Assembly: GCF_044324875.1 (NCBI RefSeq)
Contig: NZ_CP172185.1
DNA length: 64,000 nucleotides
Source of the DNA: Escherichia coli
Lineage (GTDB): Bacteria; Pseudomonadota; Gammaproteobacteria; Enterobacterales; Enterobacteriaceae
Direction: 5' to 3' (one strand)
In this document: piece after piece, positions 47,344 to 55,273 of the stretch
Position numbering within the stretch: the first letter of the stretch is position 1
Layout: the number at the start of each line of letters is the position of its first letter
Program-made: the position numbers and the translations under genes
The notes under the pieces: model-generated
Told to the model about the DNA's origin: nothing
The model's input: only the letters and a program-made list of their open reading frames with translations
Databases searched by the model: none

Positions 47344-47448
47344 ACCGGTATCCTGTTGATTTCACTGAACCGGATCACACTAATCCGGTTTATCATTCAG
47401 GTAATATGGGCGTGAAAAAATCTGGAGTGACAAAGTTCGGGAGGAGTG

Positions 47449-48399
47449 ATGGCATCACTGTCGATTAATACGCTACGCCGAATGAGCATTTGTAAAAGTC
47501 AGGCCTGGAAAGATACCCAGCGAATACTGAAGCGTAGTGGACTTGTGTACAGAGGGGAACGGTCAGAATCGTTTGATCCTGAGAAACATTTTAATCGTTA
47601 TACGGTGCGTTATCTGTACCTGCTTAACATAATTGCGCTTAAGATAAGGTCGGTTAGTAAATTTTCCTGTTGGATCGAGGTGGGACAATGCCATCGTATG
47701 ACTGGTAAACATTTATCTCTTAATGCCCCGCCTTTTATGCTGATTCCGCGTAGTATCCGGAGAAAAGTGGATGGATTCAGACAGTCAAAAGGTGAAGCAA
47801 CCCCAAAATCGGCTCAACCGTTCACGGGCAGTTTGTATGAGGTTTTGAGAAAGGAGAGCGATTCAGCTAAGCTGGACGCATGGATTGCTGAACTGCCTCT
47901 GAACTTGCAGGAGGAGGGAAAGGAAATCTCAGTCATGGGATTTAGTCCACGGGCTGTGGCCCGACCTGTTCTTCGGTCAGCATCCCCGACGTTTGAACTG
48001 TTTTATCAGGAGTATCAATCCCTAAGATTAAAATCTGTTTTTAAATTTGAACCAAGATTTGAACAACTTTTAACAAGACTGAGCTTTAGAAAACAATCAA
48101 TTCTCAGAAAACAACAATACAGGGTTAAATCGCAATTACTGGAGAGACTGGGGAATGTGTTGTTTTTCACGTCGCTTTATAACCAGGGATGTTTAGAGGA
48201 GTTTATAAATGCACTTGTGGAAAAGGAGGACATTTATCTGAAAATGTCCCCTGGGGAGGAAAAGGTGAAAGCACACCAGAAAATGGTTAACTACATTGAA
48301 GCGTTCTGCAACAAAATGACGGAAAAATACCTGATGCCCGCAGCAAGCAGACACTACAAAAAGAAGAAAATCGCCAGGAGCGAAAGTGGTGAAAGTTAA
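47449..48399 (+). CDS. Hypothetical protein (316 aa), low GC, unrecognised family
   Basis: Strong RBS GGGAGGAG 4 nt before ATG 47449; divergent from the GTPase gene; basic and coiled-coil-rich; no motif I can assign. Confidence 0.55.
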   Translation: MASLSINTLRRMSICKSQAWKDTQRILKRSGLVYRGERSESFDPEKHFNRYTVRYLYLLNIIALKIRSVSKFSCWIEVGQCHRMTGKHLSLNAPPFMLIPRSIRRKVDGFRQSKGEATPKSAQPFTGSLYEVLRKESDSAKLDAWIAELPLNLQEEGKEISVMGFSPRAVARPVLRSASPTFELFYQEYQSLRLKSVFKFEPRFEQLLTRLSFRKQSILRKQQYRVKSQLLERLGNVLFFTSLYNQGCLEEFINALVEKEDIYLKMSPGEEKVKAHQKMVNYIEAFCNKMTEKYLMPAASRHYKKKKIARSESGES

Positions 48400-49184
48400 T
48401 CCAGTCTACCGTACAGAATCAGTTGTTCCAGAATAGCCTGCTGTGTTGTTTTCCGCTCTCTGGTCAGTCTGTCCAGAGCGCTTTTTGCGGATGGCGATAT
48501 CTTTACGTTGATTTGTACCCGTTTATCTTTTTTTCCATCGATAAACTGTTTTCTGAATGCATTGTGCATCTTGTCGAAAAATCTTTCTTTTGCAGCGAAT
48601 CCTAGGTGAAATTCTTTTGGCGTCAGTAAACAGGGTGTGTCTGTGGGGAATAACATTTTTAGTAAAACTACAATGGCAATATATCTTTCGTTATCATTTA
48701 CAGGATTAAACCAGGAAAGATATGTGGGTGAGATACGTGCATCAATATATTCCCATGCCCATTTCAGTTGTTCGGTATTCTTTTTAAGCCATTTGGCTTC
48801 GTTTCTCTTTTCGAGTCCCAGCCAGTTTTGATGCATTATTGAGATAATCCGATCTGCTTCCCCATAAAGGATTAACGCATTAATCCATTTCCCTATAACA
48901 TTCAGTCGTGTTTCATGACTTGAAGGAATAATTGTCATGGGGTTATCCTTCATAACGATCACCCCCTTCAAGGCAGAGTTGAACTCAGATTCATTATTAA
49001 GTTTAAGTTTTTCGGGAACTGTATGAGACATAATTAACCAGAACCAGAATGCTGCAATTTCATTTTTTCTGATCCATTCAGGTATGTGATTATCTGCCAG
49101 ATTATTATCATTCAATAAATGCTCAGTTGTTTTATTTTTCCAGTCATATCTATTCACGTTATAACCGCCTTTATATTGTTTCAT
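48396..49184 (-). CDS. Hypothetical protein (about 262 aa), low GC, C-terminal ribbon-helix-helix-like segment
   Basis: ATG 49184 with RBS GAGG 8 nt upstream (the track ORF starts 29 codons earlier); stop overlaps the convergent gene stop by 4 nt; C-terminus KISPSAKSALDRLTRERKTTQQAILEQLI resembles RHH DNA-binding folds. Confidence 0.5.
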   Translation of the reverse strand: MKQYKGGYNVNRYDWKNKTTEHLLNDNNLADNHIPEWIRKNEIAAFWFWLIMSHTVPEKLKLNNESEFNSALKGVIVMKDNPMTIIPSSHETRLNVIGKWINALILYGEADRIISIMHQNWLGLEKRNEAKWLKKNTEQLKWAWEYIDARISPTYLSWFNPVNDNERYIAIVVLLKMLFPTDTPCLLTPKEFHLGFAAKERFFDKMHNAFRKQFIDGKKDKRVQINVKISPSAKSALDRLTRERKTTQQAILEQLILYGRLD

Positions 49185-49804
49185 CTGATTACGCCTCAAT
49201 CGTTTTCTTTTCTGGTGATTTTCACCATCACATGTCAGTTGTATATGCAAGGGGATCAATAAAAATATCACCCTGCAAGCACTTCAAAGCTGATTATGGG
49301 GATATTCTAGAACTATTCACAAAACTATTCCAGACATATCAAGAACTATTTCTTGACCTATTCATAATAAAATAAAACATGCTATCAACTACGGCTCATA
49401 TTCTCCTTGGGGGTGTCGTTGTACTGTTCGACTGTTCTTGTGGTCAGATTAACAATCTGAAGAGTAAAAGCGACAGTAATCTGTCTGTTATAGTGGCGAT
49501 AAAAACACTGAATGCGCATCCTGTATGTGAAATCCTGTCATGTAGAGCAGTAAGCAATGACAGACATGCATGTTATATGTGAAGGGGGCCGGGAGACGAC
49601 ATAATCAGTATGGCTGTCATTCTGGTTGTAAAACGCGATCACTTTCCGGGGGTAAAAGATGATATGGAGGTTGACAAACGGTTTGCTTCGGATTGTCTTT
49701 TCTGGGGCCTGAAATACGAGGGCAGAAAAATAATTCCAGAGTAAATCTGCTCTGTTTTTAGGACAGAAAACTCCATGCTGGCTGTAAAAGTGAAAAATTA
49801 ACAC

Positions 49805-50881
49805 CCAGTATGTATGGAAGTCTGAAGATGTTGAGAATGTCGGTATGATACTATATACACATATTTTACTAAGTATTTTTACTAAGCATTTCAGTAAGTG
49901 TTATACACGTATTTTCTACTAAGTGTTTTACCAGACATACACGTGTTTTCATAAACAGCCCTATAAGTGTTTTCATTAAGCATTGCTGTACACATTGCTT
50001 TGTCTGAAACACATCCAGTTTAGTAAATCTTTACGTTAGCTAAAATCAGTTTAAAGCTGCTGTAAAACCTTTCTGTTTAAGCAATCAATCTGCTATTCGA
50101 TTTTACTGATGTTGCGTTTAACCTTTTCTGAGATTTCGAGTTTCGACGTTAGCATGAGAAAAGTATCTTTACGCTAAATCAACCCGAACTTTCCTGAAGT
50201 AATCTGACGTTTTTTTCGATGTGCTTACGACGATTCTGTTAAACGACTTTCTGGATGTTTTGATAACAATCAGATTGAGGCATTAACGATTCCTGACGTT
50301 TTCTTTTCCGTGTAAGGTCATTCTTTTTGTCATGAGGTTTCTTCTTGCATTGCGAAAGTGTGATGAACGGTTTTGGTGTTTTTGATTCAGATAAGGTTTA
50401 CGTTATCGATGGTTAATCGTTTTTATGGTGCGTAGTGAAACGTAACTTTTTCAGGATGAGAAAATCGATTCTGATGTTGGTGATTTTTGTTCTTGTGGCG
50501 GGGTTTATCTGTAAACAGGTTTTAAACGTGTCATTCACATCCGTGATTGAGTTGTGTGATTAAGCTGTAGGTTTTGGGGTTGTTGTTGATTTGCATTACC
50601 AGGAAGCGTTCTGGTTGCGTTTCTGGTGTTTTGTTCGAATGTTCTGTGGATCCTTTTCCCTTCTGACTTTTCTCGTTGTCCATGTCGTTTTTAAATCCAT
50701 TCGCTGTTCTTGAGTGTTTTTACCCTGCGTGTAGAATTATCTTTTCGTTCCGGGATGGTTTGTTCCGTTTCAATCACTCTTAATCAGAGAGTTGTAGCAT
50801 TGCTCAATGCCGGATGCCGTAAAGTTTTACCGCGGTGATTAATGATGTGAAGTCAATCCAAATCAACGGAGATCTCTCATC
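49805..50881. other. ORF-free, T-rich (plus strand) 1.08-kb non-coding region with repeated short motifs, upstream of the first gpII-like gene
   Basis: No ORF of 60 aa or more in any frame; strong T over A and G over C skew on the plus strand; repeated TAAGTGTTTT-like and TTTTCG/GTTT units. Confidence 0.5.
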
Positions 50882-51613
50882 ATGAATCAACCAATACATA
50901 ATGCTTACTGGTTATCCCGTTTTGACAGCCTTCTCGACAGTGCCCTGGCGCAGCACCGTGCCGTCTCGTTAATCCGGGTGGATTTACGTTTCCCTGAGTA
51001 TATGCCTGTCACCATCATGGATCCCGATCCGGATTCAGCGGTGATTTCTCGTTTTTTTGCATCCCTGAAAGCCAAAATTCAGGCTTACCAGCGGAAAAAA
51101 AGATGTGCCAATCAGCGTGTGCATGCAACCAGCCTGCGTTATTTCTGGTGCCGGGAGTTCGGCAAGGAAAAAGGCAGGAAACATTATCACGTGATATTAC
51201 TGCTCAACAAAGATACCTGGTGCTCGCCAGGGGATTTCACCGTTCCTTCTTCGCTGGCGACACTGATCAAGCTGGCATGGTGTAGCGCTCTGCATCTTGA
51301 GCCCTGGCAGGGTAATGGACTGGTTCATTTTTCCAGGCGGACGCCTTTCCGTAAACCGGCATCATCTGATGCTCGCCCTTCTTCCGATGATACGCCTTTG
51401 TCGGGTGGATGTTCTGATACCAGGAAGGCTTCAGAAAAAAAGCCGGGTGAAGCCGCTGTTCTCTGGATCAAGCGTGGTGATGTGGAAGCGCTGCAGAAAG
51501 CCCGGAACAGAGCCAGTTATCTCGTGAAATATGAGACGAAGCAGCATGACGGTTCCGGGCAACGTAATTATGGTTGCAGTCGTGGGCCGGGGCGTCTGCT
51601 GGATGGCAGGTGA
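50882..51613 (+). CDS. Inovirus gpII-like (YagK/YfjJ-family) protein, putative HUH-type replication initiator
   Basis: 243-aa ORF with HYHVILLL (His-hydrophobic-His) motif; family typical of P4/CP4-like islands. Confidence 0.65.
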   Translation: MNQPIHNAYWLSRFDSLLDSALAQHRAVSLIRVDLRFPEYMPVTIMDPDPDSAVISRFFASLKAKIQAYQRKKRCANQRVHATSLRYFWCREFGKEKGRKHYHVILLLNKDTWCSPGDFTVPSSLATLIKLAWCSALHLEPWQGNGLVHFSRRTPFRKPASSDARPSSDDTPLSGGCSDTRKASEKKPGEAAVLWIKRGDVEALQKARNRASYLVKYETKQHDGSGQRNYGCSRGPGRLLDGR

Positions 51614-51939
51614 GCCCTGTAAAACGACATCCGGTGCCTGAGCTTATGCTACAGGACGTTGGCTGACGCCCTTAGCTCGTTTTCTGAAAAAGTCGTCCTG
51701 AAGTCATGCAACGGTATTTTTCTCTGCTTTCGCTCCTGGAAACACTCCGTCGGTAAAACCTTACTGTCCTGCTTAATGATGTGAACCGAAGTCAACGGAG
51801 ATCATTCATTCTGAACCTGCATCCGGTGTTCTGTCCCTTGTCGGTTACCTGATCTTCCCGTTCTGCCGCGGTTTTTCACTTATTCCATCAACCCCATACG
51901 CAAGCCATAACACGTCAGCGCATCCACGGGCAGGACGCG

Positions 51940-52542
51940 TTGTGGGCTGCGTATAACGGAACATATCTTATGAATGCTATCCCTTATTTCGACTATAGCA
52001 TGGCGCCCTTCTGGCCATCTTATCAGAACAAAATCATCGGCGTTCTCAACCGTGTGTTGCGCGAGCAGTCCTGCTCCCGAATACGGCGGATCCTGCTTCG
52101 TCTGCCGGGGGAACATGGCAACATCTTCAGCGACAGAAAAACCTGGTTCGGTATGGCCTTTATCGAAACCGTCAGTGCGCTGATGAATGCAACCCCCGGA
52201 CGCGACCTCTGCTGGCTCCTGACCCGTCATCCTGAAAAACCGGAATACCACGTGGTGCTGTGCGTCAGACAGGAATATTTCGACGGCCCTGAGCTGGACC
52301 GGTTGATTCTGGATGCCTGGAGCAACGTACTGGGCTTCGCGTCACCGGGTGAAGCAGCACCGTACCAGAAACAGATAACCCGGGATGTGGTGCTGGACAG
52401 TTGTTCACCGGACTGCGAAGAGAGACTCAAAGAGCTGATATGGGCGTTCAGTGATTTCGCCCGCGATCGTCGTGGTGTGCGCGATCCGGAAGCCCGTTAC
52501 CTCGCCGGTAATCCCTGGTATCCCGTAGCAGGCCAGCTCTGA
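51940..52542 (+). CDS. Inovirus gpII-like (YagK/YfjJ-family) paralog
   Basis: 200-aa ORF with EYHVVLCV motif and a similar upstream sequence motif to the 50882 gene. Confidence 0.6.
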   Translation: MWAAYNGTYLMNAIPYFDYSMAPFWPSYQNKIIGVLNRVLREQSCSRIRRILLRLPGEHGNIFSDRKTWFGMAFIETVSALMNATPGRDLCWLLTRHPEKPEYHVVLCVRQEYFDGPELDRLILDAWSNVLGFASPGEAAPYQKQITRDVVLDSCSPDCEERLKELIWAFSDFARDRRGVRDPEARYLAGNPWYPVAGQL

Positions 52543-52610
52543 AAGCTCAGCTCAGCAGATTCACCCGCATTTGCCCAACATTCATAAATCTCACAGAGGA
52601 CATTCTGACC

Positions 52611-52847
52611 ATGTTGACCTCAATGACAGGTCACGACAGCGTATTGCTGCGTGCCGACGATCCCCTGATCGACATGAACTACATCACCAGCTTCACTGGT
52701 ATGACCGACAAATGGTTTTACAAGCTGATCAGTGAAGGCCATTTCCCTAAACCCATCAAACTGGGGCGCAGCAGCCGCTGGTACAAAAGTGAAGTGGAGC
52801 AGTGGATGCAGCAACGAATCGAGGCATCACGAGGGGCAGCAGCATGA
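52611..52847 (+). CDS. alpA: AlpA-family prophage transcriptional regulator (P4-type)
   Basis: 78-aa ORF with MerR-like HTH (ITSFTGMTDKWFYKLISEGHFPKPIKLGRSSRWYKSEVEQWM). Confidence 0.8.
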   Translation: MLTSMTGHDSVLLRADDPLIDMNYITSFTGMTDKWFYKLISEGHFPKPIKLGRSSRWYKSEVEQWMQQRIEASRGAAA

Positions 52848-53596
52848 AACGTGTTGTAATGCCGGTACGCTGGCAATGTGCAAAATACCAGCGTTGGTAT
52901 TGTGGAAATCAGCCCTGTCCCTGGTGCTGGCGACCTGCTGCCCCCGTCTGTCATTCCTCGTTCTTCGCTGTAACAGGCATCGTACCGGTCTCGGCGTGCT
53001 TTCCTGCGTACCGACACCGGTTCAGCAACATTCAAGGGGATCAAATCGTGCAAATAACCGAAACCGTACTTTCAGAGCCGGTGGAAATCCGGCGTTTTAT
53101 TCAGCAGGCGGTGGATCACTGGCCGCGTCTGCTGGCCGTCCACTTCACACTCCATTCGGCAGAAGGAAACATCAACGGACAACAGATTCATGCATTCTGT
53201 ACTTCCTTTTACCGACAGGTGCACGAGCGTATTACTGAACGTAATCACACGGCCAGTCCAGCACCACCGGTGGTATTACGCTGGTTGCGGGAACAACATG
53301 GAGGAGCAACAATGCGATGCCTGTTGCTGCTCAGCCAGACGAGCATTTGCCATCCACGGGTCAGTGCCACGGTTGATGAAGAATGTTCGCAACGGGTGGA
53401 TTTATTGCAACAGACATGGCGGGTGATAAGTGCTGACGGACAATGCCGGGTGGAAAGGTGTTTTCAGGCTGCCCGGGGTGATACATCCGGCCAGTATATT
53501 GCGTTAAAAACAGTTGCATTGTCTCTGGGGTTACCGGTTGTGACCGGTATTACCCATCGCCCGGTACAGCGCTGTACATTGATTACAGCTCAGTGA
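52844..53596 (+). CDS. Hypothetical protein (250 aa), translationally coupled to alpA; possibly a third gpII-like paralog
   Basis: ATGA overlap with the alpA stop; contains AVHFTLHS in a context resembling the other two paralogs; Cys/Trp-rich N-terminus. Confidence 0.45.
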   Translation: MKRVVMPVRWQCAKYQRWYCGNQPCPWCWRPAAPVCHSSFFAVTGIVPVSACFPAYRHRFSNIQGDQIVQITETVLSEPVEIRRFIQQAVDHWPRLLAVHFTLHSAEGNINGQQIHAFCTSFYRQVHERITERNHTASPAPPVVLRWLREQHGGATMRCLLLLSQTSICHPRVSATVDEECSQRVDLLQQTWRVISADGQCRVERCFQAARGDTSGQYIALKTVALSLGLPVVTGITHRPVQRCTLITAQ

Positions 53597-53613
53597 ACAG
53601 CGCTGTTGTGCAG

Positions 53614-53916
53614 TCAACGAGGTTTTCTGTCTTTTCGTCGGTCATTCAGCATCATTAAACGGGTCTCTGCCTCTTTCTGTTCCTGTGGTGTCACTTCCCC
53701 GCACGGCTGACCGTTCAGGTTGTAACGGGCGCCACCTGCTATTAACGCACGGTAATAGCGCGGAGACTGCACATAAGACGCCACTGCTGCATGTAATGTA
53801 CCAGCGCCAAACGCCAGTTCTCGGATGGCGATATCCTGTATCAGGTCGTCAGGTATCCCCACTTTAAGTGGTTTTGTTTTTTTCCCGGTTGAATGACTCA
53901 GGCCAGAGTTCCACAA
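53614..53916 (-). CDS. Hypothetical small protein (100 aa); uncertain, possibly a remnant
   Basis: ORF convergent with the alpA module; an adjacent 64-aa ORF (53931-54125) lies on the same strand, so both may be fragments of one decayed gene. Confidence 0.25.
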   Translation of the reverse strand: MWNSGLSHSTGKKTKPLKVGIPDDLIQDIAIRELAFGAGTLHAAVASYVQSPRYYRALIAGGARYNLNGQPCGEVTPQEQKEAETRLMMLNDRRKDRKPR

Positions 53917-54510
53917 GACGAATAATGCGCTTACGGTTTTTGCTCTGGCGTTTTGTCATGTCGCCACGGTGTTTTATCAGCAGGTTTCTGTTTATCGTTC
54001 AACTGTGGTATCTGGTCACCGGCCTTCATTTTGTATGCTGTGTCCGTTTTATCCTGCAGCGGCGTTGCCGGTGATTTACTGAAAATACCCTGCGGTTTAC
54101 GGTTAATGGTCAGAGTTACCATCAATTTTGTTACCTCGCGCTGTCAATGGAAGTAGTACCTCATCCGATATCTGAAAATGTTTTCCGGTGGATGTTACAG
54201 CGAATTTCATGTAAGACATGTTGTTGTCGGTATTGTTCAGTACTGTGCGTTGTGAGCGTATTCGTTATCAGACAGAGGGGCAGGGAACAAACGTCAGAGG
54301 TTAAGGATATCCGGGAACAAATGGCGTAAACGGACATCTCAGTGCCTGAGAAACAGTACAGGTCAGGCCATCATGGCCTGCAAACAGAGCCCTGGCGACC
54401 CCGTGGCCGAAAACGAAACAATAACCCGCGCGCAGTGCGAGGAATCCGGATGTGAAGCAATCAGCAGGTAATATTAATGGCAGGACCAGCAGGTTCTTTA
54501 AACAAACGAA

Positions 54511-55273
54511 GGTGGTGACTCCAATTAGTAGAACATATATTTTTCGATAAAGGCACCGATGACTTTTTCATGAAGTTCTACAGAGCGCGAGAAACAGATA
54601 GTTCTGCGGGCCAGACGTTTGATTCGGGTTCTCAGAGGTAGATGTTGCGCTCAATGCGCTGAGTAAAAATCTTACCAGTCAGATGCTTCTCCTTCGGTAA
54701 CTCTCTGGTGTAACTACCCCATTCGTCAGTGGTCAACATACCGATGGTAAAAGGGCAAGCAGCGCCAGCAATTCACGACAGGTTTAATCAGTCCGTAGGC
54801 CAAAAGTGTAGGCCAGAACGCCACCAGTTTTCGTGTTGTACGTGTACCAGAGCCAGTGCTGTCGCGCTTTACTGCCGACAAAACTCCATTGCTCATCAAG
54901 TTCGCAGATGAGTGCCATATCAGCATGAGCGACCGGGTATGACGTTATTCTTCGTGGCGAGAGTTTTTTAAAGTCCGGATGACAGTATTAATGCCGATTT
55001 TCAGCGTACGGGCAGTATCGCGAACTCCGGCACCGTTGAAAGCCATTTCAGTGATTTGCTCTTTAACTCCCGGTTTACGGGCCTCGTAACGGTAAGTGAG
55101 CTGAAGCACTCGATGACAGTCACGGCAGCGAAATCGATCATGTCCTTTGGGTTCTTCCCGTGACGGTAAACCTGAACGGACTGGCAACAGGAGCAATGAA
55201 GGTTAACTGTGACCATGAAAGAACCTTAAAAGTGGCTATTATACTCCTAATTCAACTAATTGGAGTCATTACC
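54511..55273 (-). mobile_element. IS1-family insertion sequence (divergent isoform), apparently defective
   Basis: 763 bp; terminal repeats GGTGGTGACTCCAATTAGTAG (left) and AATTGGAGTCATTACC (right); InsA-like and InsB-like coding on the minus strand, each split across two frames. Confidence 0.8.
54945..55216 (-). pseudogene. insA: insA-like gene with internal frameshift
   Basis: Zn-finger N-terminus (MVTVNLHCSCCQSVQVYRHGKNPK) is in one frame and the HTH C-terminus (GHDRFRCRDCHRVLQLTY...AFNGAGVRDTARTLKIGINTVIRTLKNS) in another; downstream InsB-like sequence (...RTRIKRLARRTICFSRSVELHEKVIGAFIEKYMFY) is also split. Confidence 0.6.

Follow-up and report, generated by a model that had tools for sequence, protein, structure and literature searches.

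We analysed a 64,000-nucleotide stretch of Escherichia coli DNA (NCBI RefSeq assembly GCF_044324875.1, contig NZ_CP172185.1; hereafter the window), and in particular the open reading frames (ORFs) at positions 50882-53596, which lie around alpA, the gene for a predicted excision regulator. The reading that we favour, to which we give a probability of roughly 60%, is that this region represents the regulatory and replication-like core of an E. coli island of the CP4/P4 type, partly decayed and deletion-derived, encoding one intact Rep-like protein and two degenerate partners. An earlier note on this DNA had described three paralogs with His-hydrophobic-His (HUH) motifs, similar to inovirus gpII, with alpA translationally coupled to the third. 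The relationship of the three ORFs to the gpII/YagK/YfjJ family holds, directly for ORF1 and through profile-profile comparison and intermediate proteins for ORF2 and ORF3. Only ORF1 has an HUH motif together with the conserved tyrosine of the family, and as such the region does not encode three HUH-motif proteins. We hold the identities assigned to the ORFs with high confidence; a specific role in replication or mobilisation is put forward tentatively, and we consider it doubtful. The features concerned are:

ORF1: 50882-51613, plus strand, 243 residues, YagK/YfjJ ("inovirus Gp2 family") Rep-like protein with the full predicted catalytic motif set

ORF2: 51970-52542, plus strand, 190 residues, divergent YagK/YfjJ-fold paralog; RefSeq start ATG at 51970 in a frame open from 51940

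alpA: 52611-52847, plus strand, 78 residues, AlpA/Vis-type helix-turn-helix (HTH) excision regulator (PF05930, 40.8 bits against a cut-off of 21, expectation value (E) 2e-10)

Small Cys-rich ORF, first 30 codons: 52844-52933, plus strand, ATG overlapping the alpA stop; here carrying C15Y and fused in frame to ORF3

Rest of the alpA-ORF3 spacer: 52934-53047, plus strand; its distal part is the conserved upstream region of ORF3 itself, with a Shine-Dalgarno (SD)-like AAGGGGA

ORF3: 53048-53596, plus strand, 182 residues, GTG start, Pfam UCP030791 (PF27752)

HUH proteins nick single-stranded DNA using a metal held by two histidines and a tyrosine nucleophile. Judged by its sequence, ORF1 alone of the three has retained the metal-binding H-U-H together with the acidic residue and the tyrosine that the family conserves. 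It matches PF11726 over profile positions 2-170 with 121.3 bits (E 5.2e-35), over the gathering score of 25.8 bits, and also exceeds the gathering score of PF23343 (REP_ORF2-G2P; E 9e-10); its weak matches in PHROG are to replication-initiation proteins. Motif I (30-LIRVDLRFP-38) is followed by W89-x-R-E92, H101-Y-H103 and R210-ASY213-LVK-x3-K220, and the residues invariant in 16 homologues, with identities down to 41%, include R32-V-D-L-R36, W89, E92, H101, H103, R210, Y213, K216 and K220. The segment HYHVILLL (residues 101-108, nt 51182-51205), one of two in which the earlier note had seen the motif, therefore stands as His-hydrophobic-His, and Y213, which lies in R-x2-Y-L-x-K-x3-K within a predicted helix (201-214), is the putative catalytic tyrosine. 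Structure prediction, which had been suggested as a check for an HUH fold, gave a model with the HUH-nuclease fold whose best matches in the Protein Data Bank (PDB) were HUH nucleases. ORF1 is unambiguously a YagK/YfjJ protein, with a predicted HUH fold and the full motif set. A sequence search of the PDB with either profile returned no matches, and we found no solved structure of the YagK/YfjJ family. Residues 153-189 (nt 51338-51448) form an insertion of about 40 residues that is predicted to be disordered and is absent from the homologues of other genera; many E. coli copies of ORF1 are frameshifted in or near this insertion (214-residue variants).

The second segment in which the motif had been seen, EYHVVLCV of ORF2 (nt 52243-52266), did not hold up, as it places E92-Y-H94 at the HUH position, with C-Y-H or F-Y-H in relatives. 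The only tyrosine near the expected site of ORF2 (EARYLAGN) is Y, C or H in E. coli, and alanine in the relatives P0317 and P0323. Canonical HUH catalysis is not expected of ORF2 because E, C or F replaces the first histidine and the nearby tyrosine varies, and the protein is probably non-catalytic. Scanned directly against Pfam and NCBIfam, ORF2 and ORF3 gave nothing significant; against PF11726, ORF2 scored 11.7 bits (E 0.26), below the gathering score, with the register nonetheless correct and motif I represented by 38-IRRILLRLP-46. Alignment of the ORF2 profile to the ORF1 family by hhalign (probability (Prob) 87%, E 4.2e-6, 106 columns) paired RILLRLP with RVDLRFP, PEYHVVLCVR with KHYHVILLLN and LILDAWSNVL with LIKLAWCSAL; we did not use a column-shuffle control for ORF2, in which three scores were aberrantly high. 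The ORF2 family is tiny, with 62 proteins retrieved by word-indexed search, the named ones all from E. coli, and 44 when 1.84 billion representatives were searched exhaustively with the profile, two of the 44 being distant full-length relatives. P0317, which the ORF2 profile matches with E 4e-18, scores 41.8 bits against PF11726 (E 1.4e-10; cut-off 25.8) and is an intermediate that joins ORF2 to the family. By these profile comparisons ORF2 is a divergent YagK/YfjJ domain.

For ORF3 the gene model had to be settled together with the homology. RefSeq annotates the gene as 53048-53596, and the identical protein is WP_001167455.1, which is named variously "hypothetical protein", "UCP030791 family putative phage-derived protein" and "YagK/YfjJ domain-containing protein" (NZ_CP054368, NZ_CP135671, NZ_CP133856). 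Membership of PF27752 comes through homologues, some of them 98-100% identical, all 120 of the 120 listed having a precomputed match. Nearly all of these homologues begin MQITEAL at a GTG or ATG equivalent to 53048; where gene callers have extended them upstream, the extensions are in differing frames. The start is GTG in 12 loci, preceded by an SD-like AAGGA or AGGGG, and about 120 nt upstream of it are kept also in loci that have no alpA (L011, L013, L017, L019). On this comparative evidence the true start of ORF3 is the GTG at 53048.

Direct comparisons linked ORF3 to the family poorly. BLASTP between pairs of the three ORFs gave only E 0.1-0.4; PF11726 matched two of 40 ORF3-family members (best E 0.003) and gave no match to ORF3 itself, so that the comparison with PF11726 proposed in the earlier note bore out ORF1, ORF2 and ORF3 both missing the gathering score. 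A narrow E. coli ORF3 alignment (effective number of sequences (Neff) 1.5) aligned to a narrow ORF1 family by hhalign with E 0.014, a value equalled by one of 100 column shuffles, and the comparison of ORF3 with ORF2 was not significant. It might be supposed that UCP030791 is an unrelated family with a chance alpha/beta ferredoxin-like match, and that the true partner of ORF3 is the convergent ProQ/FinO gene, with a function centred on RNA. We consider this very improbable. Against a broader YagK-type profile, ORF3 scored 34.6 (E 1.2e-4), in contrast to 13.9 +/- 2.6 (maximum 20.9) in 80 shuffles. Synteny gave the decisive step, as the islands with distant ORF2 relatives carry UCP030791 genes directly downstream of them. 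In one such island, L030, the UCP030791 protein (157 residues) has 29% identity to ORF3 (E 7e-12) and matches PF11726 over positions 2-152 with E 9e-5 and 22.9 bits, just below the 25.8 cut-off. With two distant members added, the ORF3 profile aligned by hhalign to the ORF1 family with Prob 96% and E 2.3e-9 over 144 columns, and to the broad profile with Prob 97% and E 2.3e-11. The register was the same in all profile alignments, the W-x-R-E and LLLLN/S strands coincide, the order of predicted secondary structure is that of ORF1, "YagK/YfjJ domain-containing" is one of the names given by RefSeq to the identical protein, and a link to ProQ is compatible with homology.

In this register W79-L-R-E82 of ORF3 aligns with W89-x-R-E92 of ORF1, and HFTLH (residues 32-36, nt 53141-53155), which the earlier note had taken as a segment related to the HUH motif, is H-x3-H and falls on the motif I strand (RVDLRFP). 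The position of H101-Y-H103 is occupied by T88-M-R90 (T88-M/I-R90, with T-L-H or E-C-G in relatives), and S159 aligns with Y213; Y150, nine residues upstream, is not kept in the L028 member. The conserved, putatively catalytic tyrosine, which had also been proposed as a check, is accordingly found as an invariant residue in ORF1, as a variable one in ORF2 and as serine in ORF3. We regard ORF3 as a remote, non-catalytic YagK/YfjJ relative at the superfamily level, as judged from profiles and synteny. A species scan of GTDB for ORF3 gave two loci only, so this clade of the family is narrow.

The alpA product matches the PHROG family "excisionase and transcriptional regulator" (E 6e-10). The overlap of its stop codon by a start codon is as first described: the ATG at 52844 overlaps it as ATGA (52844-52847), an arrangement invariant in 10 distinct lineages, and in the window the frame so opened continues for 250 codons (52844-53596). 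In all other lineages this frame stops after 26-51 codons, most often 37, and ORF3 has its own GTG and upstream DNA; the proposed translational coupling of alpA to the third paralog is thus contradicted. The alpA-ORF3 spacer is 200 nt here versus 256-278 nt in relatives, a net 65-nt deletion, and the length differences among lineages are not multiples of three. Comparison of the loci indicates that the continuous 250-codon frame is a by-product of this net 65-nt loss, by which the small ORF came to share the reading frame of ORF3. Of 5426 complete E. coli genomes, 99 have the fused junction and 2452 have the 3' end of alpA with the next 88 nt. Because the frame stops early in other lineages, alpA would be coupled, if to anything, to the small Cys-rich ORF rather than to ORF3.

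In relatives the product of this small ORF is MKRVVMPVRWQCAKCRRWYCGNQPCPWCWRH followed by a short variable tail (37-51 codons), with the pattern CxxC-x9-CxxC, the second cysteine of which is tyrosine in the window (C15Y). Ten of its first 31 codons, including three Cys codons, vary synonymously, and its ratio of nonsynonymous to synonymous polymorphism (pN/pS) is 0.28 versus 0.69 and 0.70 in the other two frames (10 distinct sequences). An alternative frame after alpA (a hydrophobic product beginning MCKMPALVLW, annotated once as WP_000277549.1) has pN/pS 0.70, varies in length and lacks its ATG in some lineages, and is less likely to be coding. The small ORF has been annotated by PGAP in at least one genome (WP_001342704.1) and otherwise almost never. 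It had no match in Pfam; its W-x-C-x2-C-x3-Y-x-G-x3-C-x2-C resembles the Zn_ribbon_11 knuckles of DUF7828 proteins from the same neighbourhoods, and a small hidden Markov model of these segments scored it at 9-11 bits versus at most 7.7 in 300 shuffles, a weak likeness that is suggestive only. The small ORF is also present at L004-L010, L014 and L022-L027.

The proposal that all three paralogs are active HUH nickases of a diversified module for replication or mobilisation, with alpA coupled to the third, can draw on the homology of all three to the YagK/YfjJ family, on the reality and invariance of the ATGA overlap and on the frame that is open through ORF3 in the window. It is nevertheless extremely unlikely: ORF2 has glutamate in place of the first histidine and no conserved tyrosine, ORF3 has T-M-R and serine at the catalytic positions with HFTLH displaced to motif I, the long frame is confined to the few genomes with the fused junction, and ORF3 also occurs without alpA, so that the proposal is already contradicted on both motifs and coupling.

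The gene order in other islands suggests what is conserved in its place. Other E. coli islands carry a gene for a 188-residue YagK-like protein, with F-H-A-H-A and LHYLAKEEQK intact, followed by ORF2, alpA and UCP030791. In a fuller copy of the same island (strain H9Ecoli) the order is an ORF1-type gene, an IS110 fragment, YfjI (DUF3987), the 188-residue YagK-like gene, ORF2, alpA, ORF3 and ProQ/FinO. Relative to L031 (NZ_CP029180.1), a fuller copy of the island, the window is without 4.9 kb between ORF1 and ORF2, comprising the IS110 fragment, YfjI and the HUH-intact 188-residue fourth paralog, with the break at 51647-51730; by this alignment the juxtaposition of ORF1 and ORF2 is deletion-derived. 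In two distant islands of 42-44% GC, alpA lies upstream of the triad genes, the order being alpA, a Rep-like gene, one opposite-strand gene, an ORF2-like gene and UCP030791 in L028, and alpA, a YfjJ-like gene, an ORF2-like gene and UCP030791 in L030. As the gene order persists in distant islands while alpA moves, the conserved unit is a triad of one intact and two degenerate paralogs, with alpA variable in position. In a further island type (L014-L016, 1628-2194), a 188-residue PF11726 protein with a degenerate HUH (P-Y-L-M) is encoded two genes upstream of UCP030791, after two DUF7828/Zn_ribbon_11 genes; with this degenerate copy, repeated loss of the HUH motif in the YagK/YfjJ family seems likely.

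Loss of the catalytic residues from ORF2 and ORF3 could also mean that both are functionless remnants of duplicated Rep-like genes, decaying in a dead island, with the motif loss as pseudogenisation. Many truncated or frameshifted variants, the frameshifted ProQ/FinO gene adjoining ORF3, the insertion sequence (IS) elements nearby and the 4.9 kb of the module lost in the window are in keeping with such decay, as is a pN/pS of 0.45 for ORF3. We think this explanation unlikely. The frames of ORF2 and ORF3 are intact here and in most copies, and pN/pS, given here as crude pairwise estimates, is well under 1, being 0.21 for ORF2, 0.20 for the HUH-intact 188-residue paralog and 0.06 for alpA. ORF2 is under purifying selection, with a constraint equal to that on the HUH-intact paralog. 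Moreover, the same degenerate motifs and gene order recur in distant islands in which the proteins are merely 25-30% identical, and this persistence requires long-term retention of non-catalytic forms. The alignments suggest that ORF2 and ORF3 keep the core of the fold (motif I strand, W-x-R-E/D strand, hydrophobic HUH strand and AW helix) under continued purifying selection, with the catalytic residues lost.

In SV40 T antigen and papillomavirus E1 the same fold, without these catalytic residues, serves as an origin-binding domain. In the mechanism that we propose for the island core, AlpA would first promote excision of the island. The intact copy, ORF1 (in full islands also the 188-residue paralog), would then nick a site in the island DNA through a covalent tyrosine-DNA intermediate, and the nick would prime rolling-circle replication or mobilisation of the excised island. 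ORF2 and ORF3 might act as non-catalytic DNA-binding or regulatory partners, by analogy with those viral origin-binding domains. Proteins of the AlpA family are activators of integrase expression and of the excision of CP4-57-type elements (bioRxiv 10.1101/2024.08.29.610337), and islands that bear an integrase recurrently have Gp2-like genes and alpA in their core (bioRxiv 10.1101/2024.08.29.610337; SRL pathogenicity island (SRL PAI), PMC6980539).

Several observations weigh against this reading of an island core with one intact Rep-like protein and two partners. We found no tested activity for any YagK/YfjJ protein in the literature, and for this reason nicking, replication or mobilisation by ORF1 is proposed from fold and motifs. 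Inverted and direct repeats included no convincing candidate nick site, and no origin or nick site was found; there is no integrase in the annotated stretch of the window, the island copy is full of IS elements, and frameshifted copies are common for ORF1, ORF3 and the ProQ/FinO gene. For ORF3, constraint is relaxed (pN/pS 0.45), the structural model is of low confidence (predicted local distance difference test (pLDDT) 57) with best matches that, besides SIRV1 Rep, are generic palm or ferredoxin-like folds, and a Foldseek search of BFVD gave no significant match, several of the weak ones being Rep or NS1 proteins.

A more elaborate scheme would make of these genes an unrecognised, conserved control circuit for excision or replication of P4-type islands, in which one active and two dead HUH-fold paralogs operate with AlpA, with a zinc-ribbon-like microprotein of 37 residues coupled to AlpA and, in many of the E. 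coli copies, with a ProQ/FinO RNA chaperone from a convergent gene, the dead paralogs being pseudo-enzyme regulators or site-selectors for the active nickase. Parts of the alpA/paralog module are present in about 45% of complete E. coli genomes. We offer this circuit as a speculation and regard it as quite improbable.

Among known systems, the closest are YfjJ and YagK of K-12 (PF11726 YagK_YfjJ_C, formerly "Inovirus_Gp2"), from the cryptic prophages CP4-57 and CP4-6. Over its full length ORF1 has 31% identity to YfjJ; it shares with these proteins RVDL, W-x-RE, HYH, Y-x2-K-x3-K and GCS, and lies near alpA as in CP4-57; as in CP4-57, a YfjI (DUF3987) gene is present in fuller copies of the island, the window being without it. 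Unlike the K-12 proteins, ORF1 has the disordered insertion of about 40 residues, and ORF2 and ORF3 are far more diverged and without HUH and tyrosine. In K-12 a single YfjJ gene lies downstream of alpA-yfjI; here alpA sits among three paralogs, and fuller islands have four. The HUH Reps (the nuclease domains of parvovirus NS1 and AAV Rep, SIRV1 ORF119 Rep, pMV158 RepB, Helitron Rep; PF23343) show 9-17% identity, and ORF1 has no helicase domain attached. The SV40 large T antigen origin-binding domain and papillomavirus E1 DNA-binding domain are analogous to ORF2 and ORF3 only, with no sequence similarity. Like AlpA of CP4-57 and Vis of satellite phage P4, the window alpA product is a small HTH protein of PF05930, encoded here in a P4-like integrative element; it shares 25% identity with K-12 AlpA and, unlike it, is followed by the overlapping small Cys-rich ORF.

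The association of Gp2-like genes with AlpA and the family names of ORF1 and ORF3 in public annotation were already known. What is new, as far as sequence comparison can establish it, is the placement of ORF2 in the family, the catalytic degeneracy of ORF2 and ORF3 and the conservation of the triad across distant islands. The finding enlarges a known, uncharacterised family by divergent members, gives it some structure and is not a new kind of system; as nothing here is mechanistically unprecedented, its practical significance is modest. YagK/YfjJ genes are nonetheless among the commonest uncharacterised genes of enterobacterial and Pseudomonas genomic islands, where they adjoin AlpA; the ORF2 family is still "hypothetical" in annotation and the names of UCP030791 proteins are inconsistent. 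Degenerate relatives that travel with an intact copy lead to the hypothesis that DNA is nicked by the active copy and bound by its dead partners, a point of interest for how islands replicate or are mobilised after excision. Two gene models are also corrected, namely the GTG start of ORF3 and the alpA-coupled small ORF, which is largely unannotated.

The region lies in a CP4/P4-like chromosomal island adjoining ynjB, as the RefSeq annotation of its surroundings shows. A 3.5-kb segment around the finding is 99.9% identical to the E. coli SCU-115 chromosome; of 5426 complete E. coli genomes, 2858 have parts of this segment, and 239 of those have a place that covers 80% or more of it. The surrounding features are:

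Island genes before ORF1 (RefSeq): cbtA/yeeU, antirestriction gene, DUF932, YfjP-like GTPase, two hypothetical genes

ORF1 leader: 50819-50886, plus strand, imperfect palindrome GTAAAGTTTTAC (GTAAA-N2-TTTAC), TTAATGATGTGAA, SD-like ACGGAGATC, then ATG

Second leader copy: 51753-51815, plus strand, CTG at the position of the ORF1 ATG; 155 nt upstream of the ORF2 start

RefSeq names from ORF1 onwards, in order: "inovirus Gp2 family protein", hypothetical, HTH regulator, hypothetical, frameshifted ProQ/FinO gene

ProQ/FinO-family gene: 53614-54122, minus strand, convergent, a frameshifted pseudogene here (RefSeq "frameshifted"); PF04352 E 5e-17 on a 100-residue fragment

After the ProQ/FinO gene (RefSeq): IS elements, YadA-like adhesin, aerobactin operon

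The two copies of the leader (65-70 nt) were found as direct repeats D2/D3 and are homologous by alignment. Every island examined has the second copy, some 200 nt ahead of ORF2; the leader might serve both genes as an operator or promoter, or it might be left over from a gene duplication. An intact ProQ/FinO gene (158-165 residues) in convergent orientation lies no more than about 20 nt beyond the UCP030791 gene in most of the E. coli loci examined. The pairing is found in L008 and L012-L019, even without alpA, and ProQ/FinO is absent from L004-L007 and L009; the overlapping 3' ends of the two genes suggest a link at the RNA level. An Rfam scan of 49500-55000 gave nothing except a sub-threshold PhotoRC-I match within ORF1, which we took as chance; promoter and terminator sites were no more numerous than in shuffles, and PADLOC gave no defence-system match beyond a weak AlpA-like one.

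Upstream, the hypothetical genes at 47446-48399 (plus strand, 317 residues) and 48396-49271 (minus strand, 291 residues) are convergent and gave no family match, the product of the latter having a C-terminus weakly similar to ribbon-helix-helix or RepA-RepB regulators (E 0.03-0.1). Between this minus-strand gene and the divergent ORF1 lie 1.6 kb (49272-50881) of AT-rich DNA (33-44% GC) with no annotated gene, kept at 80-95% identity in 628-1876 E. coli genomes. This stretch holds five copies of a 13-nt repeat in an array (TTTTACTAAGTAT, 49864-49929), with more short direct repeats to 49990; candidate roles for it are those of an origin, an iteron region or silenced regulatory DNA.

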